The notes under the pieces: model-generated
What the model was told of the DNA's origin: nothing
Databases searched by the model: none
Seen by the model: only the letters and a program-made list of their open reading frames with translations
Shown here: in pieces, positions 7,261 through 63,875 of the stretch
Numbering within the stretch: position 1 is the first letter of the stretch
Layout of the letters: every line of letters starts with the position of its first letter
IMG/VR virus record: IMGVR_UViG_3300045988_175595
Span: 101,597-165,596 of that record
DNA from: a virus
Length of the DNA stretch: 64,000 nt
Strand: one strand, 5' to 3'
Translations under genes and position numbers: made by a program

Positions 7261-8382
7261 TTAATTTGCTTTAAAATTATAAATTGGTTTAATTATTTTT
7301 ACAATATCAACTGTATCTTTAATATTGTTTATAATTTCTTCTGAAGGTTTATATGCACCTTTAGATTCGTCTATTGTTGCATTATTACAAGTTGAACTAA
7401 AAATATTATTTTCTTTCATTGCATTAATATCATCTTCAACTTTTAACAATTCTTTAGCTTTAGAACGGCTCAAGATTCTACCTGCACCATGAGGAGCAGA
7501 ATAATTCCAATCTGGATTTCCTTTTCCTATAGCTATTATGCTACCATCTATTCTATTTAATGGTATTATTACTTTTTCTCCTTTTTTTGCAGATATAGCT
7601 CCTTTTCTTAATATTTTATTAGCTAAATCTATATAGTTATGAATTGTTGTAAAATGACTTTCTTCTTCCCAATTCATTTTATTGATTATAGTATCTGCAA
7701 TAGCCTCTCTATTAAATTGAGCATAAGCTTGTGCTATACCCATATCGTAAAGATAATTTTTTAAATTATCTCCTTGTAAATAGCATAAGGCTTTTGGAAC
7801 TTTATTTATTTTCGGATCATCATTTATTTCTTTAATAGCTAAATTTTGATAATATTCAGCTATTTGTTTTCCTAAACAACTTGATCCAGAATGTATAACT
7901 AAATATATATTATTTTCTGAATCTTTGTTCATTTCTATAAAATGATTTCCTCTACCTAATACACCTATAGATTTTTTTGCTATGTCTATATTTATATTAG
8001 ATTTACATTTTAATAGAGATAAATCTACATATTTATTATATGGATGTTCTTTATCTCTTATATTGGTTCCGTTAGGGATATATTGTTTTATACATTCATC
8101 TACTTTCTGTAAATCAATGTCCTCTAGTTTTTGTTTTAATTTTACTACAAACATTCCACAACCTATATCACTTCCAACTAAATTAGGAGTAACTTTGTCA
8201 TCGATTGTCATTGTAGTTCCTATTGTACACCCCGCGCCTGCATGTGTGTCTGGCATAATCTTTATAACAGAATTTTTATATGCCTCTTGATTACACAATT
8301 CAATAATTTGTGATATTGCCTCTTGGTCTATATCAAATGTATAAACTAAAGCAGTATTATATTGTCCTTGTAAAGGTATCAT
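7261..8382 (-). CDS. rtcB: RNA 3'-phosphate/5'-OH ligase RtcB (compact 373-aa form)
   Basis: Motifs MPDTHAGAGCTIGTT, GRGNHFIE and HSGS match the RtcB metal- and GTP-binding signatures. Confidence 0.8.
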   Translation of the reverse strand: MIPLQGQYNTALVYTFDIDQEAISQIIELCNQEAYKNSVIKIMPDTHAGAGCTIGTTMTIDDKVTPNLVGSDIGCGMFVVKLKQKLEDIDLQKVDECIKQYIPNGTNIRDKEHPYNKYVDLSLLKCKSNINIDIAKKSIGVLGRGNHFIEMNKDSENNIYLVIHSGSSCLGKQIAEYYQNLAIKEINDDPKINKVPKALCYLQGDNLKNYLYDMGIAQAYAQFNREAIADTIINKMNWEEESHFTTIHNYIDLANKILRKGAISAKKGEKVIIPLNRIDGSIIAIGKGNPDWNYSAPHGAGRILSRSKAKELLKVEDDINAMKENNIFSSTCNNATIDESKGAYKPSEEIINNIKDTVDIVKIIKPIYNFKAN

Positions 8383-9168: not shown

Positions 9169-9531
9169 TTATAATCCATGAGTTGTTTGTTCTATTTTTC
9201 CTGTTGTAGGATTTCTAGAAAAAGTGTCTCCATATAAATTTGTAAATTCAACCATATCATTAGTAATTAATGGTCCTGACGGAAAATCTCCTGGACCTTC
9301 TATTGGAAAAATATTTGGACCAAATACTCTTTCCTTTGATTCTAATTTTGCTACTCTTATTTCTAATTCTTCGATCTTTTTTTTTAAATGTTCTATTATA
9401 GAACTTTGATCTTCTTTTTTATTCTTTTTTTCTTTAAATTTGATTGATTGATAACATATTGTATTATCTCTACAATCAAAACACATACCTTTACATCTTA
9501 TTCCTTGGTTATATTGTTCTTCGGAAATCAT
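9169..9531 (-). CDS. Hypothetical Cys-containing protein
   Basis: 120-aa ORF with CKGMCFDCRDNTIC near the N-terminus. Confidence 0.4.
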   Translation of the reverse strand: MISEEQYNQGIRCKGMCFDCRDNTICYQSIKFKEKKNKKEDQSSIIEHLKKKIEELEIRVAKLESKERVFGPNIFPIEGPGDFPSGPLITNDMVEFTNLYGDTFSRNPTTGKIEQTTHGL

Positions 9532-9890
9532 TTTTGTCTCCTATTTTGCCAAGTTCTAAAATTTTGGATTTTAGATAATAAATCTTTTGCTTTTCCATCA
9601 AAACAAATAGTTCTATCATCAATATTTAATAAAGCTGGCTGTTTTTCTTTACAAACATTATCAACAACTATATTATATTTATCTAGCCATTGTTTAATAG
9701 CTTGTATACCTTCTTCTGTAGAACATCTTGAAGATACAATTACTACAGAATAGCCTGCATTTCTTATTTCTTCTATTGCTTCTTGTATACCTTCTACTGG
9801 CGGATCAGGTATATTTGTAATTCCCTTCCAACCAGAAGTATAACTATGAATAACTCCATCAAAGTCAAATTGAATTATTTTTTGTGCCAT
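9528..9890 (-). CDS. Small HAD-superfamily hydrolase/phosphatase
   Basis: HAD motif I FDFDGVIHSY near the N-terminus. It overlaps the upstream ORF by 4 nt. Confidence 0.5.
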   Translation of the reverse strand: MAQKIIQFDFDGVIHSYTSGWKGITNIPDPPVEGIQEAIEEIRNAGYSVVIVSSRCSTEEGIQAIKQWLDKYNIVVDNVCKEKQPALLNIDDRTICFDGKAKDLLSKIQNFRTWQNRRQK

Positions 9891-10139
9891 AATATATCCT
9901 TTCTTTATATATATTCTATACTTGTCACCAAGGGGTTATTGTTTTTAAAAAGAAATATAACTCTTCTATTAATGACAATATTATAAATGCAAAATAATAA
10001 TGTTCAGTAGTAAAAGAAGTATTAAATATTTTATTAATAATATTTAATATAAAAATATTAAAGTTAAAAATTGTTAAAAAATAAGCAAATAGTAAATTTA
10101 CTAAAACATTTAAAACAATATCCATAATCTTTCCGTTAC

Positions 10140-10292
10140 TGAAAACTTATAAAAAGTTATAAAATAAACTTTTACGTTTCATTCTTGATTCAACGTGACC
10201 TATTTCACTATATAAGCTACTCTAGTTTGGTATATCACTCCACAAGCGTAAATTCCCGACTAACTATCGGTACATATCTATAATTGCTTTCA
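10140..10292 (-). ncRNA. Candidate TnpB-associated omega RNA (reRNA) / IS right end
   Basis: This segment is locally GC-richer than its surroundings (ttgattcaacgtgacctatttcactatataagctactctagtttggtatatcactccacaagcgtaaattcccgactaactatcggtac). It is placed where TnpB guide RNAs are normally encoded. Confidence 0.4.
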
Positions 10293-11465
10293 TTATGCTA
10301 CATTATAGATTGCTGAATCTTTTAAATTTAATGATGCTTGATAATCTCTATCTATTATATTTCCACATTCTGGACAAATATAAATTCTATCACTAAGTTT
10401 CAAATCTTTTTTAATAGAACCACATTCATGACATAACTTGCTTGAAGGGAAATATCTATCAACAATTCTTAATTCTATATTATTCCATTTACACTTATAT
10501 TCTAATTGTCTGCGAAATTCATATAATTTCTGTTGTTGAATAGCTTTAGATATATGCTTATTTTTTATCATACCACTTATATTTAAATCTTCTATTGTAA
10601 TAAACATTGGTTTTCTGTTTACTATTTCAGAAGTTACTTCATGTAAATAATTATCTCTAATGTTAGTTAGTCTATGATTTAATTTTAAAAGTCTTTTTTC
10701 ACTTTTTACAATATTACTTGTTTTGCAGTAACTATCTCCTTTCTTATTTATTAGATATTTTTTAGATATCTTACGTTGTAACCTACGTTTTCTTTTCTCT
10801 AATTTTCTTATCCTTTGTGTTTTATTTATATTATTATAAATATTTCCATCAGAACATATTGCTAAATCTTTAACACCTAAATCTATTCCTATTCCTTCAT
10901 TTGTAGGTATTTCTATATTATCTTCATATTCAATACCAACACATATAAACCAATTAACTCCGTCATAAACCACATGAGGATTTATATATTTACAATTAGT
11001 AGGTATTTTATTCTTTTCTGATAATTTAACCCAATTTAATTTAGCTTTATTTTTCTTTTTACTTGTTGCAATATTCTCTAATTTAACATGAGTATCAGTA
11101 AATTTAATTTTTATATTATCTACATAAAAACTAGGTCTGTCTAACTTTTTTGATTTAAATTTAGGAAATTTAGATTGTCCTTTAAAGAATCTTTTATAAC
11201 TCATACAAGCATCTTTAATAGCCTGTTTAGTTACATTATTACTTATAGAATATAGCCACTTATATTCTTCTTGTTTTTTTAATTTAGTAAATTCTTTTCT
11301 TAACTCATAGTCAGAAATAAATTTACCACCATTTTTATAATTTTCTTGTTGTCTAGCTATTGTCCAATTATAAGCAAATCTTTTTACTCCACAAAACTGA
11401 AACATCTTTGTCTGTTGTTTATTATTAGGCTTTAACTTAATCTTTAATGTTTTTATCATCCTCAA
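10293..11465 (-). CDS. tnpB: TnpB (IS605 OrfB-family RuvC-like nuclease with C-terminal zinc finger)
   Basis: GIDLGVKDLAICSDG RuvC-I-like motif and CHECGS...CPECG zinc finger. Confidence 0.75.
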   Translation of the reverse strand: MRMIKTLKIKLKPNNKQQTKMFQFCGVKRFAYNWTIARQQENYKNGGKFISDYELRKEFTKLKKQEEYKWLYSISNNVTKQAIKDACMSYKRFFKGQSKFPKFKSKKLDRPSFYVDNIKIKFTDTHVKLENIATSKKKNKAKLNWVKLSEKNKIPTNCKYINPHVVYDGVNWFICVGIEYEDNIEIPTNEGIGIDLGVKDLAICSDGNIYNNINKTQRIRKLEKRKRRLQRKISKKYLINKKGDSYCKTSNIVKSEKRLLKLNHRLTNIRDNYLHEVTSEIVNRKPMFITIEDLNISGMIKNKHISKAIQQQKLYEFRRQLEYKCKWNNIELRIVDRYFPSSKLCHECGSIKKDLKLSDRIYICPECGNIIDRDYQASLNLKDSAIYNVA

Positions 11466-11907
11466 TCAACTCCTTTACCATTTTTCTAGTTTTATTCGCA
11501 CGTTTTCCTTGTAATTTACAACTAAACACAGTAATTATTTGAACTAAATCTTCCACTAATTCTTGTTGCTCTGATTTTTTAGTGGTATCAACTATTTCTA
11601 TTTCACAATTATAAAGACTTGCTATATATTCAACTAACTCAAATCCAAATCTTAATAATCTATCTTTATATAATACGACTATTTTTTCTACTTTATTTTG
11701 AGTTATTAATCTAATTAATTGTCTCAATCCTTTCTTTTTATAATTAATACCACTACCTATATCTGATATTATTTCAAAGGGTTTACCTTGTGACAATAAA
11801 TACATTCTCATATTTTCAATTTGTCTTTCTAAGTCATCTTTTTGTTTATGAGAACTAACTCTACAATATCCTATTATTTTTTTATCTAATATTGGATTTA
11901 AATTCAT
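11437..11907 (-). CDS. tnpA: IS607-type serine recombinase TnpA
   Basis: The resolvase catalytic region YCRVSSHKQKDDLERQ, with a 156-aa length, is typical of IS607 TnpA. Confidence 0.7.
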   Translation of the reverse strand: MNLNPILDKKIIGYCRVSSHKQKDDLERQIENMRMYLLSQGKPFEIISDIGSGINYKKKGLRQLIRLITQNKVEKIVVLYKDRLLRFGFELVEYIASLYNCEIEIVDTTKKSEQQELVEDLVQIITVFSCKLQGKRANKTRKMVKELIEDDKNIKD

Positions 11908-11969
11908 AACTTGATTTAATTGTTCATGTGAATAATATCTATATCCATTAGTTGAAGTATGATGAGGCT

Positions 11970-12254
11970 TTAATTAGTTCTTTTTATTTTCATTATATAT
12001 TCTCTATCATCATCATCTTTAAAATATAAAGCATCTTTAAAAGAAGTAAATTTATTATCTGCATATTTTTTTAATAATAATAACATTCTTACTCCTTGTG
12101 CTATATATTTTGGTTTATTTGATGTTAAGTTCTTTTGACCAACAAAATAATAGAAATTATATAAAGAATATAAATTAATTTTTGCTATTTCTTCTCTTTT
12201 TTCAAATAAGCTATTAATAAGAAGTTTTGATCTTTCATTTAATAGCTTATTCAT
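11970..12254 (-). CDS. Hypothetical protein; the frame stays open upstream, so it may be a fragment of a gene disrupted near the IS
   Basis: 94-aa ORF. The same reading frame remains open for at least about 16 codons upstream of the annotated Met. Confidence 0.3.
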   Translation of the reverse strand: MNKLLNERSKLLINSLFEKREEIAKINLYSLYNFYYFVGQKNLTSNKPKYIAQGVRMLLLLKKYADNKFTSFKDALYFKDDDDREYIMKIKRTN

Positions 12255-12572
12255 TTTAATATCATTAGAAAATAAAATCTGAATAGCAGATCCATTACCT
12301 TTTACAATTAAATTAATTAATTTTCTTATATCAGATACTTCTGTATCTACTAATATTGTAATATTTTCTTTACTATATTGTCTTTTAAAATATAAATCAT
12401 TAAAAGAAGGACATAAAAAAACTCTTTATATCTACATTAGATTGTTCATCATTTAAATTATATAAATGAGAACCTATAGATACAGAAAATAATTCTAATC
12501 TATCTTGATTTTCTTTATTTGTATCAATTATATTTTTAATGCAACTATTGCATAACATATATATTTCTCCTT

Positions 12573-13052
12573 TTAATTTTCTATAGGAACATAAATATGA
12601 TATTTAAAATCAATAGGAAGATTATCTTCTACTATTTTACTTTCTTGTTTACTATTACAGTAAATTTTACAAGAAAGAACTTTTTCCATCTTAGTATTAT
12701 ATTCTATAGAAGTTTTTACAGGTAAATTAAGTTCTCTAATTTCATCAGCAAACGTTTTCCCTTCATTAAGAGGAGCAGTAATTTCAAAGATATATAATTT
12801 ATCTCTTTCAGATTTCTTTATAATTATACCTGGTATATATGTACCTAAAAATGTTGCTATACACATAGATATAATACTATATAAAGAATTATCTTTTGTT
12901 AATTGAACTACTCCTAATAAATAAAAGAATGTAGATAAGGCATTAAAAATGCCCCCAATAAAAAATTTTTCTTTTTGTAAATATATTGTTTTACAAGTAC
13001 TAAGGGCATTATCTAATGCTTTTAATGTAAATGCTATTAATATTCTTAACAT
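12573..13052 (-). CDS. UPF0316/DUF2179-like membrane protein
   Basis: An N-terminal MLRIL start with two transmembrane segments and a soluble C-terminal domain resembles the YebE/UPF0316 family. Confidence 0.4.
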   Translation of the reverse strand: MLRILIAFTLKALDNALSTCKTIYLQKEKFFIGGIFNALSTFFYLLGVVQLTKDNSLYSIISMCIATFLGTYIPGIIIKKSERDKLYIFEITAPLNEGKTFADEIRELNLPVKTSIEYNTKMEKVLSCKIYCNSKQESKIVEDNLPIDFKYHIYVPIEN

Positions 13053-13055
13053 TAA

Positions 13056-14837
13056 TTATACAACTGTTTTATCTGATTCAACTGAGTTTAATTCAATAAT
13101 ATCATTAAGATATTTTAACTTAATTCCTGTATTCTTAGATAAAGCCATAGAATAAGCTAATCTAATTGTATTCTTTATAACTCTACCGTTTATTTCATGT
13201 TTTGCTAACATAGGAATATTATTATATACTTCTTCTTCTATTCCTACTTTATTTGTACATTTTGCCTTGTTTAATATACTTTCCCATATATTAGCTCTTA
13301 CATCAGCTGTTAAACTAGCATATTCAATTGCTGATGTACATCTAGAGATAAAGGCTTCGTCTAGATTATCTTTAAGATTAGTAGTCATGAACATTATTCC
13401 ATTATATCTTTCTAATAATCTTAAGAATATAGCTGTCATTGCATTTCTTTCTAGATTCATATTATCTCTTCTAGTAACGAATGCATCTACTTCATCAAAT
13501 AAAACTACTGCATCCCATGCTGTAGCTATTTTCATTACTTGACTTAAGTTTTCTTCAAGTTGTCTTGGTTGAGTTCCTAATTCTCCTACAGATACAAAAT
13601 ATAAAGGTTTCTTTAAATATTCTGCAACTGATTCTGCTGTCATGGTTTTTCCACAACCAGCTGGTCCATATAATAAGAAGATCTTTCCTTCTCCTTTTCC
13701 AGCAATACTATCTAATGAAGGCATTTCATTAGTAAGTGCAGCAATAATAATATCTTTATAGCTATCCTTTATCTTTAATTCATTAAATGATTGTGAAGCA
13801 AATACAATATCGTTAACATTTTCTATTGACATCTTACACCATTCCTTGTTATTGAATGAGAATCCATAAACTACTGGAGAACATTGCCAATAATTATTTT
13901 CATCTAATGATATTCCTTTATTTTCTTCTGAGAAATCTATTCCATCATACCAATCATCATCAAGACTAGGATTCATTTCTCGGAAATTAGTTATATCTAT
14001 CATAACTCTTCCATTTATATTTGTTCTGTCGTTAGAGAAAAATCCAAATGTGTATGCAAATCCATCATAATATGAATATGTTGTATCTACATATTTCAAG
14101 TATTTCTTTCCTCTTTCAGTATATTTTTGAATGCTATCTTCAGTTAATTCTTCTACGTTAACCAAATCATTTAATTCAAGAATTTCTTCTATTACAGGTA
14201 CTTTAACATAAATATTATGTTTTAGAAATACATTTCCATTAAATGAAATTATTTCTAGACAAAGAGAAAGACTTTCACCGAAGAAAGATCTAGAATAGTT
14301 AATACTTTTTAATGTTCCAGCATAAGTATTATTTTCAGAATCTTTTACTGCAACTTTTTTATTTGGTCTTAATTTATTATATACATAAGTAAACAATGGA
14401 AGTCTTAATGGCTTTTCTAATTCATCTATATTCTTTATATTATTTAAAATATAGCTTAAATAACTATTAAGAATATAGCAAATAAAATCATTTTGATCAT
14501 CTGAGCTTATTGTTGAATCTTCTTCCTCTTTTAATTTTTCTATTATATCTTTAGCTCTAGATGCAAAATGATTTGCATTATTTTGAATAGTTCTTAAAGC
14601 TCTATCTTCTCCATACATTAATTCAAGAGCTTTGTACTCTTTCTTCTCTTTATAATAATATCCAAGAATATCATCTGAATACATACTATATCTTACATCA
14701 TCATCTGGTATCTCAAATATTAAATCTCCTTTATCAAATTTAATAGAGAAACCAGGATGCTCCATATCTTTTATTATTTTAGGAATTTTTAATTTCTCCA
14801 TTATTTCTATTTCATTTTTGTTTAATAAATTACTCAT
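13056..14837 (-). CDS. AAA+ ATPase with a large unknown N-terminal domain
   Basis: Walker A LLYGPAGCGKT, Walker B VLFDEVDAF and the downstream arginine-finger region are present. Confidence 0.7.
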   Translation of the reverse strand: MSNLLNKNEIEIMEKLKIPKIIKDMEHPGFSIKFDKGDLIFEIPDDDVRYSMYSDDILGYYYKEKKEYKALELMYGEDRALRTIQNNANHFASRAKDIIEKLKEEEDSTISSDDQNDFICYILNSYLSYILNNIKNIDELEKPLRLPLFTYVYNKLRPNKKVAVKDSENNTYAGTLKSINYSRSFFGESLSLCLEIISFNGNVFLKHNIYVKVPVIEEILELNDLVNVEELTEDSIQKYTERGKKYLKYVDTTYSYYDGFAYTFGFFSNDRTNINGRVMIDITNFREMNPSLDDDWYDGIDFSEENKGISLDENNYWQCSPVVYGFSFNNKEWCKMSIENVNDIVFASQSFNELKIKDSYKDIIIAALTNEMPSLDSIAGKGEGKIFLLYGPAGCGKTMTAESVAEYLKKPLYFVSVGELGTQPRQLEENLSQVMKIATAWDAVVLFDEVDAFVTRRDNMNLERNAMTAIFLRLLERYNGIMFMTTNLKDNLDEAFISRCTSAIEYASLTADVRANIWESILNKAKCTNKVGIEEEVYNNIPMLAKHEINGRVIKNTIRLAYSMALSKNTGIKLKYLNDIIELNSVESDKTVV

Positions 14838-33567: not shown

Positions 33568-33794
33568 AACATCAATCCTTTTAACTTTTCTTAATAAAAC
33601 CTTTATTACATACCATCTAAGTATTATACAGTGAATTCTTCAATCAAAATTTTAAATGTCTTATCACATCCATTACTTTTTATTATTATTTCATTTTCTT
33701 TTAATCGCTTATCTGCACCTGGGAAAATAGTATAAGATATATCCTCAGCCTTAGAAATTTCTCTCGTAACTATACTTAAATCATTTCTCCTTTT

Positions 33795-35618: not shown

Positions 35619-36206
35619 TTATGCCTCTTTAACAAATTCCATAATTCTATTTAATTCTTTTTGTGTATCTACAATAACTAAACTTCTACCTGCATGTAAT
35701 TCATTACCATACCATTCTCCAGCCCAATTTATTGGTCTTATATAATATTTATTATCTGTTGTTTTTCCAAATAATAATTGAATATTATTATTGTTTGCTT
35801 GATATTCTTTTATTGATTCTGCTTTTTCCATAATTAATACATCTGTTAATAAATTATAAGCTGTTAATAAACCAGCTCTATCATCAAGTAGTATATTATA
35901 ATATACTTTTCTGCCATTTGGCATTCCTTCTACTCCTTCATTAACATAATCACATGGAATATTATTATTAATAATATAGCTCCATATTTCTTTGTATCTT
36001 TCTGGTTTACTAGCAGTAAAACAAATAAAAGTTGCTTTATCTTTCCATTGTCTTAATAGATTAATTACATCATTATAATTTCTATCTTTTTTATGAAAAT
36101 CATAAATAGTATCATCAAAATCGTAAGCTATAATAAGCTTACCATATTTTTTATACTCTTTATATAATCTATCAAGACAATTATTATAATTTAGATAATA
36201 ATCCAT
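35619..36206 (-). CDS. HAD-like hydrolase domain protein
   Basis: IIAYDFDDTIYDF DxDxT motif. Confidence 0.4.
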   Translation of the reverse strand: MDYYLNYNNCLDRLYKEYKKYGKLIIAYDFDDTIYDFHKKDRNYNDVINLLRQWKDKATFICFTASKPERYKEIWSYIINNNIPCDYVNEGVEGMPNGRKVYYNILLDDRAGLLTAYNLLTDVLIMEKAESIKEYQANNNNIQLLFGKTTDNKYYIRPINWAGEWYGNELHAGRSLVIVDTQKELNRIMEFVKEA

Positions 36207-36958
36207 TATTGATTAACTGATAATGGAATACAATAAGGCATTGGTAATAACTTATGCATATTTTCTTTATGCATTTTATCTATCTTATTCTTAACAGCTT
36301 GATCTTCACATACTCCTTCTCTGATATATTTATCAAGAACTTCGTATGAGAATCCTAACTTATCTTCATCTGTTTGTCCACAAAGACCATCTGTTGGTAC
36401 TTTGTTTATAAACTTATCTGGCAATCCTAATTCCTTGCCTAAAGCCTTAACTTCTTGAACTGTAAAATGAGATAATGGAGAAAAGTCTCCAGCTCCATCT
36501 CCGAACTTTGTTGCATATCCAACCCAGTCTTCTGAAAGATTACAAGTATTGGCAACTCTGCCGCCAACTATTCCGCTAATTCCATAAAGTGTTGACATTC
36601 TTATTCTTGCTGGTGTATTTATTGTAGCTACATCATTTATTTTTAAGCCTGTATGGCTAATTGTTTCAAATAAAGATTTAGTTGTATCACCTATATTTAC
36701 AGTATAAGCAGTAATTCCTAGATGCTTAACAAGATCTTTTGCATAATCAATGTCAGATTGTTCTCCATCTGGCATTAATACTCCTATTACTCTATCTTTT
36801 CCTAATGCTTTAACACATGCTGCCGCTACTGTTGTGCTATCTTTTCCTCCTGATAATCCTACAACAGCTTTTGTTTCATCTGATCCATTTCTTCTAAAAT
36901 ATACTTTTATCCATTCTATAAGATTATTTAATTGTTCTTTTGCATCAAATTTATACAT
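36206..36958 (-). CDS. nadE: NH3-dependent NAD+ synthetase NadE
   Basis: PP-loop VVGLSGGKDSTTVAAAC, 250 aa. Confidence 0.8.
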   Translation of the reverse strand: MYKFDAKEQLNNLIEWIKVYFRRNGSDETKAVVGLSGGKDSTTVAAACVKALGKDRVIGVLMPDGEQSDIDYAKDLVKHLGITAYTVNIGDTTKSLFETISHTGLKINDVATINTPARIRMSTLYGISGIVGGRVANTCNLSEDWVGYATKFGDGAGDFSPLSHFTVQEVKALGKELGLPDKFINKVPTDGLCGQTDEDKLGFSYEVLDKYIREGVCEDQAVKNKIDKMHKENMHKLLPMPYCIPLSVNQ

Positions 36959-36982
36959 AATAAATACCTCACTTTCTGTTTT

Positions 36983-37243
36983 TTATAATGGAAATTCTTT
37001 TGTTTTTTCCATTATAATTCCACTTAATGTTCCTAAGACATATAAAATTTGTTCTTTTTCTGTTAAATCTTTAAAAAAACTATCTTCTTCAGATAATTCT
37101 TCTTTAATATTTTCTTTTACAAACTCATTAAAAGATAATCTTTTGCTTAATTCATCTAATACTATATTATAAGCATTTTCTATTCCTTGTATTATTTCTA
37201 ATTGTTTTTTTGTAAAATCTAAATTTTCAATATTTTCTAACAT
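36983..37243 (-). CDS. Hypothetical protein
   Basis: 86-aa ORF. Confidence 0.35.
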   Translation of the reverse strand: MLENIENLDFTKKQLEIIQGIENAYNIVLDELSKRLSFNEFVKENIKEELSEEDSFFKDLTEKEQILYVLGTLSGIIMEKTKEFPL

Positions 37244-37254
37244 TATAATTTCTC

Positions 37255-37509
37255 CTAATATTTTTTAAATGGACTTCTATTCATCCATTCATGTAATTTA
37301 CTATCTTCATATATTTTTTCATAGAATAGATATATAGAATAAATTGAAAATCCTATAATAGTTCCAGGTAAGAAAATAATACAAGATATTATCTTACCAT
37401 TTGTCATGCATTCTATTCCATAATAACTTATATCAGTAATTACATCTATCGTCATTACAATACAAGCACTAATGTAAAAACATAGTGCTAACATTAAAAA
37501 AATTAACAA
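37255..37509 (-). CDS. Small membrane protein
   Basis: 84-aa hydrophobic ORF. Confidence 0.35.
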   Translation of the reverse strand: MLIFLMLALCFYISACIVMTIDVITDISYYGIECMTNGKIISCIIFLPGTIIGFSIYSIYLFYEKIYEDSKLHEWMNRSPFKKY

Positions 37510-38979
37510 TTAAAAATTGCCTCCATTTAATCTTTCTCTTATTGTTGATAAACTTTCTTCTTTTAATAGCTTACCATCTTTAAATACTGGTTTAAGCAAA
37601 TTATGTTGATCTTCATATGCTTTATTCCAACTATAACAATCAGCATATGTTATTTTGTCATTATCTAAATAAACAACACAACAGCCTTTTTGAGATTTTT
37701 TGAAACTGCCTTCTTTAGGATTTTTAAAAATTAGAGTTGGCTTATCATCCAACTCACAATAAGTTGCTTTGATACACATACTAAATGTATCTCTAGTAAA
37801 TGGTTTTAATACGCCATTTTCTTCTATTGCCTGCATTGAAAATGACCCTACTCCTAGAGCAACATTATTACAAGCAAATCCATTAGCTATTAAAATTTCA
37901 TAGATTTCTTTGCAGCGTTGTACAGTTATGCTATCTCCATATATAGCTTTAACATGCGGATCTAAAATTTTATAACCTTTACTATTTACTGTTCCTCCAA
38001 AGATATCCCATAATTTAAAGACTGTCTTTGTTACAACTTCAACGCAATCTCCGCTATCTCCGCGGACTAAAAAACAACCATTATGATTTAATATTTCTTC
38101 TTTTAATTGAGGTAGAACATTTTCTACAATGTTCCAGTAATCATAGCTATCTAACACAGCTGAAAAGCTTGTATTAGGATATATTTCTGTTAAAAGTCTT
38201 CTTAATAAAGTTATTTCATCGCCATCAGCAGAAAAGTTTGAACACATTACTGAATGTTCTGTTGATACTGCTCCTAATAATACTGGTTCTTTAGTACAGT
38301 CACAGTTGTAATTATCTTCTAGATAAATTATTGCTGGAACCGTTGCACTATTTAAGAATGATAGTGCCCAACCAGCTGAGCTCTTAATAGCTGACTGTAG
38401 GCATTCTTGCCCACGAAAACTAAAATCTCCTAAAGCTTTAGATCTAGGTATATCATCATCTACAGAAATATCATAATACTTGTTTACAATATCTCTATAT
38501 GTGCTTCCTACAGTTGCTGAGATCATTGGATGCCATATTTCAGCCGATATAAGTGATTCTAATGCTTGAGGTAACCATGCAAAATCTGGATGTGTATTTG
38601 TAATACAAAACATAGGAACATGTATTGGCACTTTAGTTCCTTCTGGAAGCGATAAAACTTCAATAGGTAAGTAACCTAATTCATGAAGTTTTCTAATTTT
38701 TTCGCTTGAATAAGCTCCTTTTCCAAGACTTGCAGATAAAACTCTATCATATTCATTTACTACTTCTTCTAAATCTTTCTTAAAGAAATATTCAGTGAAA
38801 TAGTCAATGAGATATGTTTTAATAAACCCTTGCAAACCAAACATGACTACTTTTGGCCACATATCTACTCTACTCATTCTTGGAGTAAAATAACTAGCAC
38901 TTTTTGTTATATTTTTTGGTAGCATATCGCTATGACATGCTTTATAAAAATCTATTAATAACATTGGATTTGTTTTCAT
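37510..38979 (-). CDS. Nicotinamide phosphoribosyltransferase family protein (NAMPT/NadV-like, or NARP1 Namat-like)
   Basis: 489 aa with the N-terminal DFYKxxH pattern (LIDFYKACHSD) typical of the NAMPT/PBEF family. Confidence 0.6.
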   Translation of the reverse strand: MKTNPMLLIDFYKACHSDMLPKNITKSASYFTPRMSRVDMWPKVVMFGLQGFIKTYLIDYFTEYFFKKDLEEVVNEYDRVLSASLGKGAYSSEKIRKLHELGYLPIEVLSLPEGTKVPIHVPMFCITNTHPDFAWLPQALESLISAEIWHPMISATVGSTYRDIVNKYYDISVDDDIPRSKALGDFSFRGQECLQSAIKSSAGWALSFLNSATVPAIIYLEDNYNCDCTKEPVLLGAVSTEHSVMCSNFSADGDEITLLRRLLTEIYPNTSFSAVLDSYDYWNIVENVLPQLKEEILNHNGCFLVRGDSGDCVEVVTKTVFKLWDIFGGTVNSKGYKILDPHVKAIYGDSITVQRCKEIYEILIANGFACNNVALGVGSFSMQAIEENGVLKPFTRDTFSMCIKATYCELDDKPTLIFKNPKEGSFKKSQKGCCVVYLDNDKITYADCYSWNKAYEDQHNLLKPVFKDGKLLKEESLSTIRERLNGGNF

Positions 38980-39012
38980 TATAAATTCCTCCTTTAATAC
39001 AAAAATAATGAT

Positions 39013-39294
39013 TTATAGTTCTTTTTCTAATACATTATTTTCATTTAAGATATTATTTTTTATATCTTCAACTATTTTAATATGACCTTTAATAGCTTGA
39101 ACATTAGTATCATATTGTTGTATAACTATCCATTCTCCATTTTTAATATTTTTATTGCTTATAGCAGTTTCATAAGGATATAATGAATATTTAATAAAAC
39201 AAGTACTAACTATAAAATCTTTTATTTTTGTATTTTCAATTTTCATTTCTACATATTCTTTTACTTTTTTGTTTCTATTAAATAAATTAAACAT
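39013..39294 (-). CDS. Hypothetical protein
   Basis: 93-aa ORF. Confidence 0.35.
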   Translation of the reverse strand: MFNLFNRNKKVKEYVEMKIENTKIKDFIVSTCFIKYSLYPYETAISNKNIKNGEWIVIQQYDTNVQAIKGHIKIVEDIKNNILNENNVLEKEL

Positions 39295-39299
39295 AATAT

Positions 39300-39710
39300 T
39301 TACTTAATAATTACAGATCCACCCGCATCAATTTCTCCTTCATGCTTTCCTTGGATCTGTACTGATCCTCCACAATCAATACTTCCATTAACATCTCCAG
39401 ATATTTGTACTGATCCTCCACAATCAATAGTGCCTCCAACATTTCCTACAACTTCAACGCTGCCATTACAATTAATTTCTTGTACATCACCTTCAACTTT
39501 AATATTAACAATAGAATTTGAATTGAAAGTCATGTCTTTATCTTCTAATTCTTTTCCATTGACAAAAACTTTGCCATTTACAATGCTAATGTTACCATTA
39601 GCCTGTATTTGTTTTCCATTTATAGTAATTGTTCCATTATTACAAGAAATAGAATTACAATTACTATTAGTTATATTAAATTTACTAAAGAAATCTTTCA
39701 TTATATTCAT
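39300..39710 (-). CDS. Bactofilin-like (polymer-forming cytoskeletal, DUF583) protein
   Basis: Repeated G(S/N)V(E/Q)(V/I)xG(D/N)V beta-helix repeats. Confidence 0.5.
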   Translation of the reverse strand: MNIMKDFFSKFNITNSNCNSISCNNGTITINGKQIQANGNISIVNGKVFVNGKELEDKDMTFNSNSIVNIKVEGDVQEINCNGSVEVVGNVGGTIDCGGSVQISGDVNGSIDCGGSVQIQGKHEGEIDAGGSVIIK

Positions 39711-39717
39711 TCCTTTC

Positions 39718-40530
39718 TTATAATGTAATATCAGTTATTTTACTATGCTGATCATGTCTTAAACTGTTAGTTGTATATATGTGATCAACATAATCAGTTT
39801 TAAGTAAATCACCAGCATGTATATTGTCTTCACAATGAGAACAATAAAAAATAACTGATTTTGCTCCCAATTCTTTAAGTTTTTTTGCAGCAAATAATGT
39901 AGTATAACCTTTAACGCATAGATCATCTACAATAAGTATATTTTTATCTTTTACAATATAATCACCTATTATATCATAATCTGTAATTCTGCCATCATCA
40001 AGATCTCGGTGCTTATTACCCCAGAACTTTGGCAAATCTATTGCTGAAAGTACTTCTGAGTATTTTTTATACGCTCCTACATCTGGCATAAATATTGCAT
40101 CTATATTATTTGCTTTTTCTCTTTCATCATCTATAACTTGTCTAACATAATAAGTTAAATCAAGTTGAATTATTCTTTCTAATGCTCCAACTGATACATT
40201 AGAATGAGGATCTAATACAAATATTTTAGAGAAGTTTAAGCTATTAATAAGCTGTGCAAAATATTTGCATGTAAACATCTGATTATATGTTTCTCTATCC
40301 ATTCTTTCATATGGAATATAATACATATATAGATTAACTTGTGTATTGGTTGGATATTTTTCGTCTATATATTTCTTAAGAAATATTAGATTCATTATAT
40401 CTATTGAATTATCATAAAATAATTCAATTTTTATATCATTATCACAATTTACTGATAATGGTGCGATTTTTATTTCATTGTTTGGAAATAATGAATATTT
40501 TATTTCAACATAATTATTTACTTTAATCAT
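39718..40530 (-). CDS. Ribose-phosphate pyrophosphokinase (PRPP synthetase) family protein, possible ADP-ribose pyrophosphokinase (Adps-like)
   Basis: FVLDPHS (DLHA-like) region and DDLCVKGYTTLFAAKKLKELGAKSV resembling the PRPP-binding loop. Confidence 0.55.
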   Translation of the reverse strand: MIKVNNYVEIKYSLFPNNEIKIAPLSVNCDNDIKIELFYDNSIDIMNLIFLKKYIDEKYPTNTQVNLYMYYIPYERMDRETYNQMFTCKYFAQLINSLNFSKIFVLDPHSNVSVGALERIIQLDLTYYVRQVIDDEREKANNIDAIFMPDVGAYKKYSEVLSAIDLPKFWGNKHRDLDDGRITDYDIIGDYIVKDKNILIVDDLCVKGYTTLFAAKKLKELGAKSVIFYCSHCEDNIHAGDLLKTDYVDHIYTTNSLRHDQHSKITDITL

Positions 40531-58865: not shown

Positions 58866-61800
58866 TTATTTAGGCATTACTATTCCATCCATTAATATTC
58901 TATTTAATTCATCTTGTTTACTTTCTTCTTTAGTTTCTTCTACTTTTAAAGTATTTTGAGGCATAGCAATACCATCTAATAAAATATTACTATTTGGTGT
59001 TTCTTGATCTTTATCTATAGCAACTTCTCTTTCTACAGATGTAGGCATAACAATACCATCCATTAATATATTATTAATATTATTATTGTTAACTGGAGTA
59101 GAAGATAGAGAAATATTATTTGTAGGCATATTTATTCCATCCATTAATATACTATTTATCTTTTCTTTGTTTTCTTTAATAACTGATGCTTGTTCTGCTG
59201 CTATATCATATAGTCCATCAGCGTTAAGATACATACAAGTTGATTTTTCAGAAACAAAGAAATTAATTGTTGCTGTTTTAAAATCTATACTATCTAAAAC
59301 GTTTGCAACATAGCTATTAATAGCTAGATTACACACTTTAAATTCTGCACCTGTAGAAGTTACTGCCATTATTACATTGTAATCAGATTTACCAGTGTAA
59401 ATATTTTGATCTGCTTTAATATATTTATATTCTACTATTGTAGCATTTCTTAATTCTTGAGAAACACCTTGTTTAGTTATTGGAAGATAAACTCCTTTAT
59501 TATAATTAGAAGTTGAAACTTTTCTTTCAGTTTCTACAAAGTATTTACCATTGCCATCTGTAATAACAACACCATCATCAAAAGTAGCTTTCTTATTATC
59601 AAAAGTAATAAATTCATTATCTTCAGTTATTCCATGTCCTTTATTAGCTGATACATGTTTACCTAATAAATCAGGAAGATAAACAACTTTCTTATTATCA
59701 TCTATAGCACAAATGATTCTTTCAGCGGCAACTATATTTAATCCTTCTGATTTTAAGAATGCAACTAATTCTTTTTCAAATATAGTTATTAAATTAGTAT
59801 TAACTGTAGCACAAGATTCAATATCTTTTTCATAGCTATCAATACTATAGCATACAATAGCTCTTCCTATTTCTTCTGGAGTTAATACAGTTTCAGCTGA
59901 TAATAATGATAATTCAGCATAGTTTCTACAAACTTCTAAGATAGTTGTTTTTAAATATTTCTTAGTTGTTATCTCTTGTTCTTCATCTTTATCTTTTATA
60001 TTGATACAAGTTAATTCTTTAAGAGTTTCGTTTATATTTATATTCATTCTCATAATAGTTCTTAATAACTTATCAATATTAAATTTAGAAGTTTTATCTT
60101 TATCTCCTACGTTTATGTCATCTTCTTGAGTTTTTATCTTTTGTCTTAATTCATTTGATTCTGCACTTTTTATTTGAATTTCTAATTCTTTTGCTACCAT
60201 AACAATAGCTAAGTTCGCATAATCAACTAATTCATTTCTTATTGCTCCTAATGGATCAACAATACAAGGAATCTTTTCTTGATTATATTCAAACATAAAT
60301 TCTTCTTCTGTCATTTCATCAGTTACTAAGAATTCTCCAGTTGCAGAAGCAGCTAATTTATTTTTTAATAATGGTAAATTAAAGAAATTAGTTTTAGTGT
60401 ATTCTCCTTCTATTATTTCATTTAGTATTTCTACATTTTCTTCAAATAACATATCATTTGTTTCTTTCTCTTCATAAATATCTAATGGAGCTGTTAACAT
60501 GTTCTTATATGAACCACAAGCTCTGATTACATCTTTTAAGTTAAACATATCAACAACCTTGTACATGTTTTTAGCTGCATCAATAGAAGTTTCTCCTGGA
60601 TATCTATTACAATATAAAGTATCTTCTAAGAAAGCTATAGTTTCTTGTAATGTTCCATTTCCTTCTTTGTATCTTAACATAACTTCTTCACACATTCTCT
60701 TACTTAAAGTAACTTGAGTTCTAGTTTGTCCATTTCTTAATCTATAAGTTTTATATGATTTATCTGTTTTTACTGGAGAGATATAATCTTTAGTGTGTTC
60801 AACTCCAAAGAACATAGATATTGTTTTAACTATTTTATCTTTAACATTATCTGAAACATTTGGAGATATTAATGCTAAATATAATAATGCATTATTATAG
60901 AATCCAGTAGATATAAAACCTATAGGAGCAACTGGATTTAAGAAGTAATCTAATATTAATCTACCAGTATTTTCAAATGTTATACTATAGTTTCCATCAA
61001 AATCTTTAACACAAGAACTTTGACTGTTTTGAGCATCAACTTTCATATTATTTTTACCTATATTAGATTTCTTACTAATACCAAAAGCGGCTTTCTTCTT
61101 ATTAACAGCTGACTCTTCTTTCTTTATTACAGATTTATTACATCTACCAAATGAAGTTGCAAAACCAGATAAGAATTTAGCAATACTTAAAGAGTTTAAT
61201 GATTCATAGTGACTAATATCTCCTTCATCTGGATCGTTTTCATCTAATGATCTATCAACAATAGTACCAAAATCAGTAATTTGAGATAATATATCAACTA
61301 CTTGTTTATCTTTAAATATTTGCATAGAGTCTATATCAAAGTCAGCTCCATCATGTTTTTCCATGAAATAGTGACAAGCTGGAATTAATATAAATCCATC
61401 CATATCTAATACATAATCAGTTAAGAACTTCTTAGCATTATTAGTTAAATTCATCCTTTGTATTCTATCTAATAATTCTTCTGTACCTACAACTTTAAAA
61501 GTAGTAACAGCTTTATGACCACTGATTGGATGTCTTGCTGCTGATACTTTTTCTATTTCTCCTGCAACTAATGAATGAGAATAACATTCACCATCATCTA
61601 ATAATCTAGTACCAAATATAGGAGCTGGATCTGCTTGAATAACAGTATAGTCTGCATCAACATCTACTCTTAACATATTTAATAAGTTACCAGTAGAAGT
61701 AACTATATTATTAAGAATTGATTTAACAACTCCAGGGAAATAAGCTAATATTTCTTTTGGTGATAATTTATATAACCAAGTTGCAGTTTGTTGATCATTA

Positions 61801-63875
61801 TTGTATCTAATAAATTTACTAGTATCAACATCTACTGATTCTATATTTGAACCATCGTCTGATAATTTAATATAGATACCTAATTCTTCGAATTTAGCCA
61901 TTATTGTTTTCTTAGCTCTTTCTAATAATAATTCTGTAGCTTGTTCTTCGTTTTGAATTAACATCATAAAGTTAATAACCATATTTAATCCTGTATTTGC
62001 TTCATGTGCTTTCTTTAAGCATACTAAATCAAATTCATTATCATGTTCTACTAACTTCATACAGTTTTCATCAAATACACCATCTAATTTACTCATAGCA
62101 TCATCAAGTTCTTCTTTAGATAATTCATTAATATCTAAATCTTCACCGTCTATTACTAATTTAGCTACAGATGCATTATTTTCTAATAAAGCTAAAGCTA
62201 ATGTTTCTAAGTTCTTTCTCTTTTGTATTTGAGATGAGTTCTTATTTCCGCCTCCTCTTGCTTGTAAACAAATACCTAATAATTCTTTATTAGATACTGA
62301 TAAGTTACATTGTTGTAAATATTCTAATACCATTTCAACAGATATGAAACAAGTACCATCTTTTGTATTGCTACAATCAATAACATTTGCATTTTCATTT
62401 TGAGTATAAGGAGTAAAGTAATCGTTTTTATTGTATCCAGCTTTATGAGCTATATTATTAAATACAATATAGTTTCTTACTCTACCTATCTTTTTAGATG
62501 GAGTAGAAACCATCATAACTCTTGTCATAGCTTTGAATAATTTAACTAATGAATTATATTTAGCAAATTCAACAGTTCCATCTTCATTCTTTTTAGTTAC
62601 AAATGACATAGAAAATGCATTGTTTGAAGCTTTGTCTAATAATTCAATTCTTCTATCAACATTTGTTAATTCTGTATCTCCATGTTTAAAAGTATTAACA
62701 GCTGCTAATGAAATAGAACCTGTTCTTAATCCAGATGGAGTTACTCCTAATAATTGGTATTCAATTGCATATTCACCTTCTCTTACATAATTCTTTATTT
62801 CTGATCTTGTACAGAATACTGATCTAGATAATCCAGATTTCATTCTTATAATGAATATTCTAGTATCTTTTTGATGACAACCAATCATTATCTTGAATAA
62901 GTTTATTAATTTCTTCTTATTGTTTCTTAATTGTGTTCCCATAGATATACTACAAATTTCTTCTGTATATTTACCTTCAAGAGTCATAGCTTTATCAGCC
63001 ATTACACCTTCTTTTGTTTCACAAGCTCTTAATAATTCTGATTCTTGAAGAGGTTCAACCATTACTGCAACTCTTAATTCTTCTGTATTATAATCAGTCT
63101 TATAAGCTTCTAATTCTATTCTGTTCTTTAATACAACTTCCATTTCTTTAGTGAACATTTCAAAAGCTTTTTGTTTTATATAACTCTTAGTCTTTGAAAC
63201 AGTCATGAAATCAGCTATTAATTTTGCTTTAGCTTGTGAGTTTGGTAAATATTGAATTAAGAAGTTAAATTCTTTTATATCTAAGTCTGCTACTTTCTTA
63301 TTAGCTAATACTTGAGCTTTTAATGAATTAACAGCAAACTTTCTGATGTTTTTATTTCTCTTAGCTACTTCTTCTGCTGCAAAATGTTTCTTATCAAAAG
63401 CATCTTTAACTACTTTACTCATTGGAGCATATAAATCATAGTTTATTTCTTCATATACTGATTCCATGATTTCATCTTTAATTGTTTCTTTAGTTTCTTT
63501 TATCTCTTCTACTTTTACTCCTTTGTTGTAAGCTGCTACAGCTTTCTTAATATTTTTTACTACTATTTCTGCTTCTGTTATTGTATCTTTATTTTCATCT
63601 AAGATAGTTGGTATTATAACTTCATCTCTTATTACTTTTGTGATGTGTTTTGATCCTTCAGCTAATTCATTTACTCTTCTTACTACTACTTCCATATTTA
63701 ATCCCCCGTTTATTACTGTATTATTCATTTTTACTCCACCTTCCATTACTTCATTGTTTACTACTGTGTTATTGTTATTATTCATTGTATTTTCCCCCTT
63801 TAAAGTTGTGTTTACCATTTCATTGTTTTTTGTGTTCATCATTTTCTTTTCCTCCAATTTTTCATATATATACAA
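58866..63875 (-). CDS. Giant (1669 aa) protein with a beta-prime-like catalytic loop; candidate single-subunit multisubunit-type RNA polymerase (YonO-like or crAss-like two-barrel RNAP), with C-terminal tandem ILMDGIxMP repeats
   Basis: The motif HDGADFDIDSMQ (protein residues about 840-850, DNA about 61330-61365) resembles the universally conserved beta-prime NADFDGDQM Mg-binding loop and the DxDxD triad of crAss-like and YonO RNAPs. There are four C-terminal repeats of (N/R)IL(M/L)DGI(N/V/A)MP(T/Q/K). Confidence 0.45.
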   Translation of the reverse strand: MYIYEKLEEKKMMNTKNNEMVNTTLKGENTMNNNNNTVVNNEVMEGGVKMNNTVINGGLNMEVVVRRVNELAEGSKHITKVIRDEVIIPTILDENKDTITEAEIVVKNIKKAVAAYNKGVKVEEIKETKETIKDEIMESVYEEINYDLYAPMSKVVKDAFDKKHFAAEEVAKRNKNIRKFAVNSLKAQVLANKKVADLDIKEFNFLIQYLPNSQAKAKLIADFMTVSKTKSYIKQKAFEMFTKEMEVVLKNRIELEAYKTDYNTEELRVAVMVEPLQESELLRACETKEGVMADKAMTLEGKYTEEICSISMGTQLRNNKKKLINLFKIMIGCHQKDTRIFIIRMKSGLSRSVFCTRSEIKNYVREGEYAIEYQLLGVTPSGLRTGSISLAAVNTFKHGDTELTNVDRRIELLDKASNNAFSMSFVTKKNEDGTVEFAKYNSLVKLFKAMTRVMMVSTPSKKIGRVRNYIVFNNIAHKAGYNKNDYFTPYTQNENANVIDCSNTKDGTCFISVEMVLEYLQQCNLSVSNKELLGICLQARGGGNKNSSQIQKRKNLETLALALLENNASVAKLVIDGEDLDINELSKEELDDAMSKLDGVFDENCMKLVEHDNEFDLVCLKKAHEANTGLNMVINFMMLIQNEEQATELLLERAKKTIMAKFEELGIYIKLSDDGSNIESVDVDTSKFIRYNNDQQTATWLYKLSPKEILAYFPGVVKSILNNIVTSTGNLLNMLRVDVDADYTVIQADPAPIFGTRLLDDGECYSHSLVAGEIEKVSAARHPISGHKAVTTFKVVGTEELLDRIQRMNLTNNAKKFLTDYVLDMDGFILIPACHYFMEKHDGADFDIDSMQIFKDKQVVDILSQITDFGTIVDRSLDENDPDEGDISHYESLNSLSIAKFLSGFATSFGRCNKSVIKKEESAVNKKKAAFGISKKSNIGKNNMKVDAQNSQSSCVKDFDGNYSITFENTGRLILDYFLNPVAPIGFISTGFYNNALLYLALISPNVSDNVKDKIVKTISMFFGVEHTKDYISPVKTDKSYKTYRLRNGQTRTQVTLSKRMCEEVMLRYKEGNGTLQETIAFLEDTLYCNRYPGETSIDAAKNMYKVVDMFNLKDVIRACGSYKNMLTAPLDIYEEKETNDMLFEENVEILNEIIEGEYTKTNFFNLPLLKNKLAASATGEFLVTDEMTEEEFMFEYNQEKIPCIVDPLGAIRNELVDYANLAIVMVAKELEIQIKSAESNELRQKIKTQEDDINVGDKDKTSKFNIDKLLRTIMRMNININETLKELTCINIKDKDEEQEITTKKYLKTTILEVCRNYAELSLLSAETVLTPEEIGRAIVCYSIDSYEKDIESCATVNTNLITIFEKELVAFLKSEGLNIVAAERIICAIDDNKKVVYLPDLLGKHVSANKGHGITEDNEFITFDNKKATFDDGVVITDGNGKYFVETERKVSTSNYNKGVYLPITKQGVSQELRNATIVEYKYIKADQNIYTGKSDYNVIMAVTSTGAEFKVCNLAINSYVANVLDSIDFKTATINFFVSEKSTCMYLNADGLYDIAAEQASVIKENKEKINSILMDGINMPTNNISLSSTPVNNNNINNILMDGIVMPTSVEREVAIDKDQETPNSNILLDGIAMPQNTLKVEETKEESKQDELNRILMDGIVMPK

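Follow-up and report, generated by a model that had tools for sequence, protein, structure and literature searches.

Within a stretch of viral DNA comprising 64,000 nucleotides (nt) of IMG/VR record IMGVR_UViG_3300045988_175595 (hereafter the window, whose positions serve for all coordinates), a pair of overlapping genes, tnpA and tnpB, and a guide RNA region occupy ~1.84 kb of the minus strand, from 10133 to ~11973, and all genes around this element lie co-directionally on the same strand. The element is, in all likelihood, a 5′-truncated, immobilised copy of an IS607-family insertion sequence (IS) belonging to the ISFba1-like clade with RAGATH-18 guide RNAs, and lacks ~193 nt in total compared to its full-length relatives. 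It is a fragment of an IS607 member and not a complete one: the serine-recombinase TnpA typical of the family is present and its N-terminal MerR-like helix-turn-helix (HTH) is not, and of the two defined ends, with a GG terminus and without target duplication, only the right one is found. A first-pass annotation of this DNA had proposed an inserted IS607 element, and the features it named are all there, on the minus strand, at or within a few bases of the positions it gave; the tnpA/tnpB unit stands, but not as an intact element, since the left end and 29 tnpA codons have been deleted. The IS607 TnpB/guide RNA system as such is known, and the copy described here is an ordinary, degraded member of it, with little new biology.

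tnpB, its guide RNA and the right end

tnpB (10293–11459, minus strand) is full-length, encodes 388 amino acids (aa) from its ATG and overlaps tnpA by 23 nt. The listing of open reading frames (ORFs) extends it to a TTG at 11465; in exact protein look-ups the TTG-start form was unmatched and the ATG-start form was matched, which supports the 388-aa start. Its domains are HTH_OrfB_IS605 (PF12323), OrfB_IS605 (PF01385) and Cas12f1-like_TNB (PF07282), it scores 303 bits against NCBIfam guided_TnpB, and its closest solved structure is that of ISFba1 TnpB (PDB 8IAZ; E = 2.6e-86, residues 2–388, 44% identity). The RuvC triad D193, E290 and D372, aligned with the ISFba1 catalytic positions, is kept, as is the zinc finger with its two CxxC pairs (CHECG at 343 and CPECG at 362), and the RuvC motif, the finger and the overlap with tnpA are as read in the first pass. 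The 8IAZ chain has Ala at the third RuvC position, and we take it to be a D371A mutant, a reading unconfirmed from the paper.

RAGATH-18 RNAs co-occur with IS607 TnpBs that average 390 aa, mostly in gut Firmicutes, and form the core of the IS607-family TnpB guide RNA (reRNA, or omega RNA); in the bound RNA, RAGATH-18 is enclosed by a 5′ and a 3′ flank, followed by a guide derived from the DNA past the element (Ren et al., Cell Res 2024, PMC11061315). In the window, cmscan matched the full RAGATH-18 model (Rfam RF03064, positions 1–71) at 10182–10246 on the minus strand, starting 46 nt past the tnpB stop codon, with 69.2 bits compared to a gathering score of 44.9 (E = 9.5e-12 for the 64-kb window). 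The same motif was detected 3′ of tnpB in nine other loci retrieved, including those of Staphylococcus phages Twort and phiSA012. Scaffold and right end together span 160 nt (10133–10292, minus strand), arranged as a 5′ hairpin, the RAGATH-18 core, a 3′ hairpin and the terminal GTAACGG, and are conserved in five close and two distant relatives; compensatory changes occur in 14 of 26 predicted reRNA pairs in an alignment of seven homologous loci. The features of the RAGATH-18 TnpB nuclease module that can be read from this copy are present: protein size, RuvC triad, zinc finger, RAGATH-18 3′ of tnpB and conserved flanks.

An omega RNA directly 3′ of tnpB had been predicted in the first pass from sequence that "turns GC-richer and structured". 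The place proved right and the cues did not: at 0.31 compared to a window mean of 0.255, the GC content of the scaffold is equalled or exceeded in 14% of 160-nt windows, and it is not predicted to fold more stably than shuffled sequences (minimum free energy, z = −0.11). It is the covariance model and the covariation, not GC content or folding energy, that establish the reRNA.

The close relatives of the element include a copy in Enterocloster phage CB457P1 and others in Anaerovorax odorimutans, a Clostridium metagenome-assembled genome and Clostridium sp. Marseille-P2415 (TnpB identity 61–69%, with RAGATH-18 downstream). Five close sequences are near-identical through ...TTTATAACTTTTTATAAGTTTTCAGTRACGG and unrelated directly after it, with identity reaching as far as ...TTTTCAGTRACGG before the immediate divergence. 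Because similarity is lost past ACGG, we place the right end at 10133, with its GG at 10134–10133, GG being the terminus of IS607 elements (PMC13565253). The phage flank directly 3′ of the right end provides the predicted 20-nt reRNA guide, AAAGATTATGGATATTGTTT (10113–10132, minus strand), which covers the start codon of a 66-aa ORF. The length assigned to it follows by analogy from ISFba1, whose guide is the non-conserved sequence after the scaffold, with 20 nt as the optimum (PMC11061315). No other target for this guide, within three mismatches and beside a motif resembling a Shine-Dalgarno (SD) sequence, was found in the window. A promoter and terminator scan returned fewer promoter-like sites than shuffles and zero terminators, and was uninformative. 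Given the overlap of the guide with the start codon of the 66-aa ORF, reRNA maturation and translation would use the same transcript.

The tnpA remnant and the lost left end

What remains of tnpA is a 156-aa ORF (11437–11907, minus strand) with an internal Met start and the serine-recombinase catalytic domain only. Its motif GYCRVSS...DDLERQ and its matches to Pfam Resolvase (6.4e-20) and to NCBIfam NF033518 'IS607 family transposase' (185 bits, cut-off 110) bear out the earlier assignment to the serine-recombinase IS607 type, with the NF033518 match confined to profile positions 54–187 of 187. The remnant is 85% identical to residues 30–208 of the 221-aa CB457P1 TnpA, the alignment starting at residue 30. 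In the latter protein, residues 5–58 resemble MerR-type HTH regulators and residues 60–204 resemble IS607-family catalytic domains, related to the ISC1904, ISC1926 and IS1535 TnpA structures, and full-length Clostridium TnpA is similarly made up of MerR_1 and Resolvase. The 63 nt 5′ of the tnpA ATG encode residues 30–52 in frame, with a stop codon upstream of residue 30; this untranslated remnant, codons 30–52 (LKPHHTSTNGYRYYSHEQLNQV, 11908–11973, minus strand), is where BLASTP and tblastn alignments to full-length TnpA start. DNA similarity to the CB457P1 copy starts at ~11967, and the deletion junction lies at ~11967–11973. Lost from tnpA are its first 29 codons, which correspond to the N-terminal half of the MerR-type DNA-binding domain.

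Comparison with intact relatives puts the lost left end at ~106 nt. Intact left ends carry an inverted copy of a 20-nt right-end motif, and that of CB457P1 also has the promoter-like TTGACT-17-TATAAT. In the window, this sub-terminal motif (TTTATAACTTTTTATAAGTT, given as the minus-strand sequence, 10144–10163) is the sole exact copy, others having three mismatches, which is at chance level, and it was the only significant match when the left ends of three relatives were used as queries. No left end or HTH-coding fragment displaced by inversion or rearrangement was found elsewhere in the whole 64-kb window; we attribute to chance a weak 20-aa match on the non-coding strand at 33616–33675 (E = 0.014 with relaxed settings). 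Since the known IS607 TnpA architecture needs the parts that were lost, we infer that the copy is immobile by itself: the remaining TnpA would be devoid of DNA-recognition helices and so unable to transpose or excise it.

The family itself is mobile, as the first pass had supposed, with related copies in unrelated contexts in one phage (CB457P1) and three bacterial genomes (Anaerovorax, Clostridium sp. and the Clostridium metagenome-assembled genome). The Anaerovorax copy lies between an aminotransferase gene and hisB, and the Clostridium sp. copy between DUF2264 and GH2 genes. For the TnpA and TnpB of the window, exact-protein look-ups recovered identical proteins in a single context only. 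This, with the absent left end and the HTH that has lost its first 29 residues behind an in-frame stop, makes it highly improbable that the element is intact, currently mobile and newly inserted into the adjoining nucleotidyltransferase gene, even if that gene is damaged, no interruption is seen in the tnpA and tnpB ORFs, and both the right end and the reRNA have been preserved. Moreover, there is no 3′ remainder of the nucleotidyltransferase gene past the right end, and relatives insert at junctions between SD and ATG, not within genes.

Exact-protein look-ups in total recovered short contigs of 15 further ENA assemblies, 22 in number, all collinear with the window and 21 of them at 99.9–100% identity; those with a source in their name are gut metagenomes. 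Together they cover the left junction, the right junction and a frameshift site in the adjoining gene described below. The left junction is crossed by contigs L018–L022 and L024–L028, the right one by L015, L016, L023 and L031–L035, and 17 of the 19 junction contigs are 99.9–100% identical, the others being L026 (99.0%, with differences confined to one end inside tnpB) and L031 (99.85%), both with their divergence clustered at a contig end in tnpB. Because independent contigs share both junctions, the arrangement can be ascribed neither to faulty assembly nor to a private mutation. Assemblies are often broken or mis-joined at IS elements, and the contig ends of one sample do diverge inside tnpB, but in view of these crossings a chimera of a bacterial IS and phage DNA has a negligible chance of being the explanation. 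The divergent contigs come from sample ERZ2661646 and differ almost only in these clusters (11217–11292 in L026, 10872–10913 in L031), apart from one further difference of L031 at 9763 that is common to L032. Assembly there seems to be confused by other, diverged copies of tnpB in that community, possibly in the host.

Insertion site and neighbouring genes

The target-adjacent motif of RAGATH-18 TnpBs is AGGAG or GAGGG (PMC11061315). In six of eight RAGATH-18-clade copies examined, the right end lies 6–11 nt 5′ of a co-directional ATG: 7 nt from the ATG of hisB (Pfam IGPD, 1.6e-65) in Anaerovorax, 7 nt from that of a GH2 glycosidase gene in Clostridium sp. Marseille-P2415, 6 nt from an ATG in CB457P1, 11 nt from the annotated gp094 start in phiSA012, 8 nt from the start in Twort, and 7 nt from the ATG of the 66-aa ORF in the window. 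The three intact left ends abut TGAAGG (Anaerovorax), AGGAGG (Clostridium sp.) and AGAAGG (CB457P1), so that the AGGAG motif is the SD in these cases; a left flank is not applicable for phiSA012 and Twort, and is deleted in the window. From these eight loci, the target-adjacent motif of the clade looks like an SD sequence, with the elements sitting between it and the start codon, a siting on which no statement was found in the searchable literature.

The 66-aa hydrophobic ORF (9925–10125, minus strand) begins 7 nt past the right end and, by analogy with these relatives, its ribosome-binding site (RBS) is probably the original target, rather than the nucleotidyltransferase gene on the other side. 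Its region (9925–10132) has a GC content of 0.16, and the small, strongly hydrophobic protein has zero family matches. No relative of this phage without the element was found. Megablast of 9500–13100 against INPHARED matched the IS only, a search of IMG/VR with the neighbouring 593-aa ATPase found no insertion-free relative, an exact 29-nt right-flank pattern had 0 matches in IMG/VR and JGI metagenomes, and exact look-up of five flanking or internal proteins for an empty site returned only contigs of the same structure.

Next to the left side of the element, the 52-aa ORF (12400–12558), an unassigned 145 nt and the 94-aa ORF (11970–12254) are a single gene, an RlaP-like nucleotidyltransferase pseudogene (11970–12558, minus strand) with a frameshift in a T7 run at 12415–12421. 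Deleting one T of this run yields a repaired protein of 195 aa, which matches the phrog_388 nucleotidyltransferase (3.3e-15) and, just under the cut-off, Pfam RlaP (9.4e-05), and which in tblastn aligns in one piece with nucleotidyltransferases from 106 phage records; a word-indexed homologue search with the same protein gave no match, where tblastn against phages succeeded. For the homologues of two phages, Bacillus phage Mater (243 aa) and Alicyclobacillus phage KKP_3916 (260 aa), the alignment runs through two frames, with the switch at ~12424, and ends at residues 182 and 187, respectively, at window 11973–11982, where a stop codon lies by the IS junction. The pseudogene is devoid of ~60–70 C-terminal codons, and no counterpart to the last 60–70 residues of the homologues was found anywhere in the window, including past the right end. 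The frameshift is a real mutation and not a sequencing error because all four of the independent Illumina assemblies covering the run (L012, L014, L018 and L020) have it in identical form.

Because the 3′ truncation of this gene and the 5′ truncation of the IS share one point, a single deletion is the simplest account, and it probably removed both together. The damage is then more likely a side effect of the loss that shortened the IS than the mark of an insertion target. The 94-aa ORF and the ~300-bp stretch beside it, which the first pass took for possible remains of the target gene, do belong to a damaged gene, a nucleotidyltransferase gene, but the pattern among relatives assigns the role of target to the RBS of the 66-aa ORF.

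Nineteen tRNA genes (621–7165, minus strand) lie near RtcB (7261–8382) and a DUF2828/DUF7788 'RNA-binding protein' (1536–3092), and together with the pseudogene they look like a phage tRNA/RNA-repair module that has lost its RlaP component. The gene content of the window, which includes an endolysin, a guanylate kinase and a NinI-like phosphatase besides the tRNAs and RtcB, is that of a large phage; of the ORFs scanned, none was identified as a capsid or terminase gene. A cluster for NAD salvage and synthesis at 36206–40530 (minus strand) comprises NAD synthetase, nicotinamide phosphoribosyltransferase and ribose-phosphate pyrophosphokinase, such NAD salvage clusters being typical of large lytic phages, and a 1669-aa ORF at 58866–63875 (minus strand) has no PHROG or Pfam match.

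Fate of the copy and comparison with known systems

The history we propose has two steps. The element would have inserted, co-directionally, at the GG of the SD of the 66-aa ORF, 7 nt 5′ of the ATG, and a later deletion would have run from the 3′ end of the nucleotidyltransferase gene through the intergenic DNA and the left end into tnpA, removing all of this sequence up to and including tnpA codon 29. A promoter-like sequence in the left end, such as that seen in CB457P1, would have gone with it, and tnpB and the reRNA may now be transcribed by read-through from the upstream co-directional phage genes. TnpB could bind the scaffold with its flank-derived 20-nt guide, and an RNA-guided nuclease would still be assembled. 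In insertion-free genomes the guide would match the RBS/start region of the 66-aa gene, and the resident locus would be spared, as the AACGG of the right end replaces the SD-like motif (GRAGG/AGGAG). Empty sites would be cut, and the copy with the IS would serve as template for their repair, possibly during co-infection, as in the restorative homing described for TnpB (reviewed in PMC13565253).

To the poor folding energy of the scaffold are added several other points that weigh against this account. Expression of tnpB and the reRNA with the left end gone, like nuclease activity, is putative. As no insertion-free relative was found, our reconstruction of the empty site, of the deleted DNA and of the original target is by analogy only, and the target-adjacent motif of this TnpB itself is unreadable, its left flank being deleted. 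It is also conceivable that the nucleotidyltransferase is a variant that is short by nature. Finally, compared to the CB457P1 copy (70% aa identity) tnpB has a dN/dS of 0.16, and the tnpA remnant, despite being useless, has equally low values of 0.05–0.08; with dS relative to relatives saturated (1.3–3), dN/dS is uninformative on selection since the truncation.

The copy could just as well be a young relic that has yet to decay. That it is functionless and decaying, with tnpB and reRNA intact merely through the recency of the truncation and nothing expressed or active, has a substantial chance of being correct, if somewhat below even. The CB457P1-type promoter-like sequence is deleted here, the useless tnpA remnant is as undecayed as tnpB, population diversity is too low to reveal selection, and ~30% of the TnpAs that accompany such loci are pseudogenes (PMC11061315). 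On the other hand, co-directional phage genes make read-through transcription plausible, and other copies keep full-length tnpB and RAGATH-18 while tnpA decays variously: in at least six copies, namely those in the retrieved loci L006 (1757–2020), L007 and L036, in Twort, in phiSA012 and in the window, it has decayed differently, and in the copies other than that of the window the HTH only, a C-terminal scrap or nothing is left. The same arrangement of tnpB and RAGATH-18 with a vestigial tnpA is found in Twort-like and Kay-like Staphylococcus phages. This suggests that the tnpB/reRNA pair has an activity of its own, selfish or useful, by which it persists longer than tnpA. At E < 1e-30, 260 phage records have a TnpB homologue, and on one IMG/VR viral contig (L003, 7069–7164) a RAGATH-17 RNA (114 bits) lies ~2.7 kb downstream of a tnpB/RAGATH-18 unit.

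A bolder and rather unlikely possibility is that the lytic phage keeps the cassette as an RNA-guided equivalent of a free-standing homing endonuclease, with the SD as target-adjacent motif. Were this true, co-infecting insertion-free relatives would be cut at the SD/start of the 66-aa gene, leading to gene conversion or exclusion of competitors, and, more generally, this IS607 clade would target ribosome-binding sites. Domestication of another kind, in which the phage TnpB has become a nuclease-dead, TldR-like regulator or is aimed as a weapon at the DNA of host or competitors, its guide having nothing to do with homing, is very unlikely. Regulatory phage-encoded TnpB derivatives are known, and the copy is in every recovered contig of this phage, but the guide is the plain right-end flank of any IS copy, with zero other matches in the window, and scaffold and protein are typical of mobile relatives. 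A dead TnpB of the TldR type was rejected outright, as all three catalytic residues of the RuvC triad are retained, unlike in TldR.

For annotation, the analysis provides the true limits of the element (right end at 10133, guide at 10113–10132, and a deletion scar on the left side), identifies tnpA as a non-functional remnant and merges two small neighbouring ORFs into one pseudogene. Of possible interest for TnpB biology and phage competition are the siting between SD and start codon and the repeated outliving of tnpA by tnpB and its reRNA in phages.

Among known systems, the element resembles ISFba1 in its ~390-aa TnpB with RuvC triad and zinc finger, an upstream serine-recombinase tnpA, the Firmicutes/human-gut setting, a RAGATH-18 located ~45–50 nt past the tnpB stop codon, conserved scaffold flanks and a guide taken from past the right end. 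It differs in protein sequence (44% identity), in a 3′ flank of ~49 nt compared to 64 nt, and in being phage-borne with the left end and the tnpA HTH deleted, and its activity is putative. The CB457P1 copy (OP172753.1, annotated as 'hypothetical proteins') is 75.8% identical in DNA over window 10130–11967 and shares the gene order, the right end up to ACGG, RAGATH-18 (79.4 bits), the phage setting and the position ~6 nt 5′ of an ATG; it is complete (~2.06 kb), with a left end, the promoter-like sequence and a 221-aa TnpA with its MerR HTH, and has other flanks. Staphylococcus phages Twort and phiSA012 (Herelleviridae) have a TnpB that is ~56% identical, RAGATH-18 downstream, an absent or fragmentary tnpA and a right end (...ACAACGG) 8–11 nt 5′ of a start codon. 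They belong to another phage family and infect another host, and of their tnpA the HTH part or nothing survives, in contrast to the catalytic part here.

More distant is ISDra2 TnpB (IS200/IS605; PDB 8BF8/8H1J), a homologous RNA-guided nuclease (E = 1.5e-44) with its omega RNA at the 3′ end of the element, a guide from the flank and proposed restorative homing. It is associated with a Y1 HUH transposase instead of a serine recombinase, its RNA scaffold lacks RAGATH-18, and its target-adjacent motif is the AT-rich TTGAT rather than a G-rich, SD-like one. With the IStrons of Clostridia, which combine a group I intron, IS605/IS607 genes and TnpB, the element shares the AT-rich Firmicutes setting, co-directional insertion beside or inside genes, and a tnpB with a 3′ guide RNA. 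An IStron reading was rejected, as Rfam models at their gathering thresholds found no group I intron in the window, and the insertion here, in contrast to IStrons, lies outside coding sequence.

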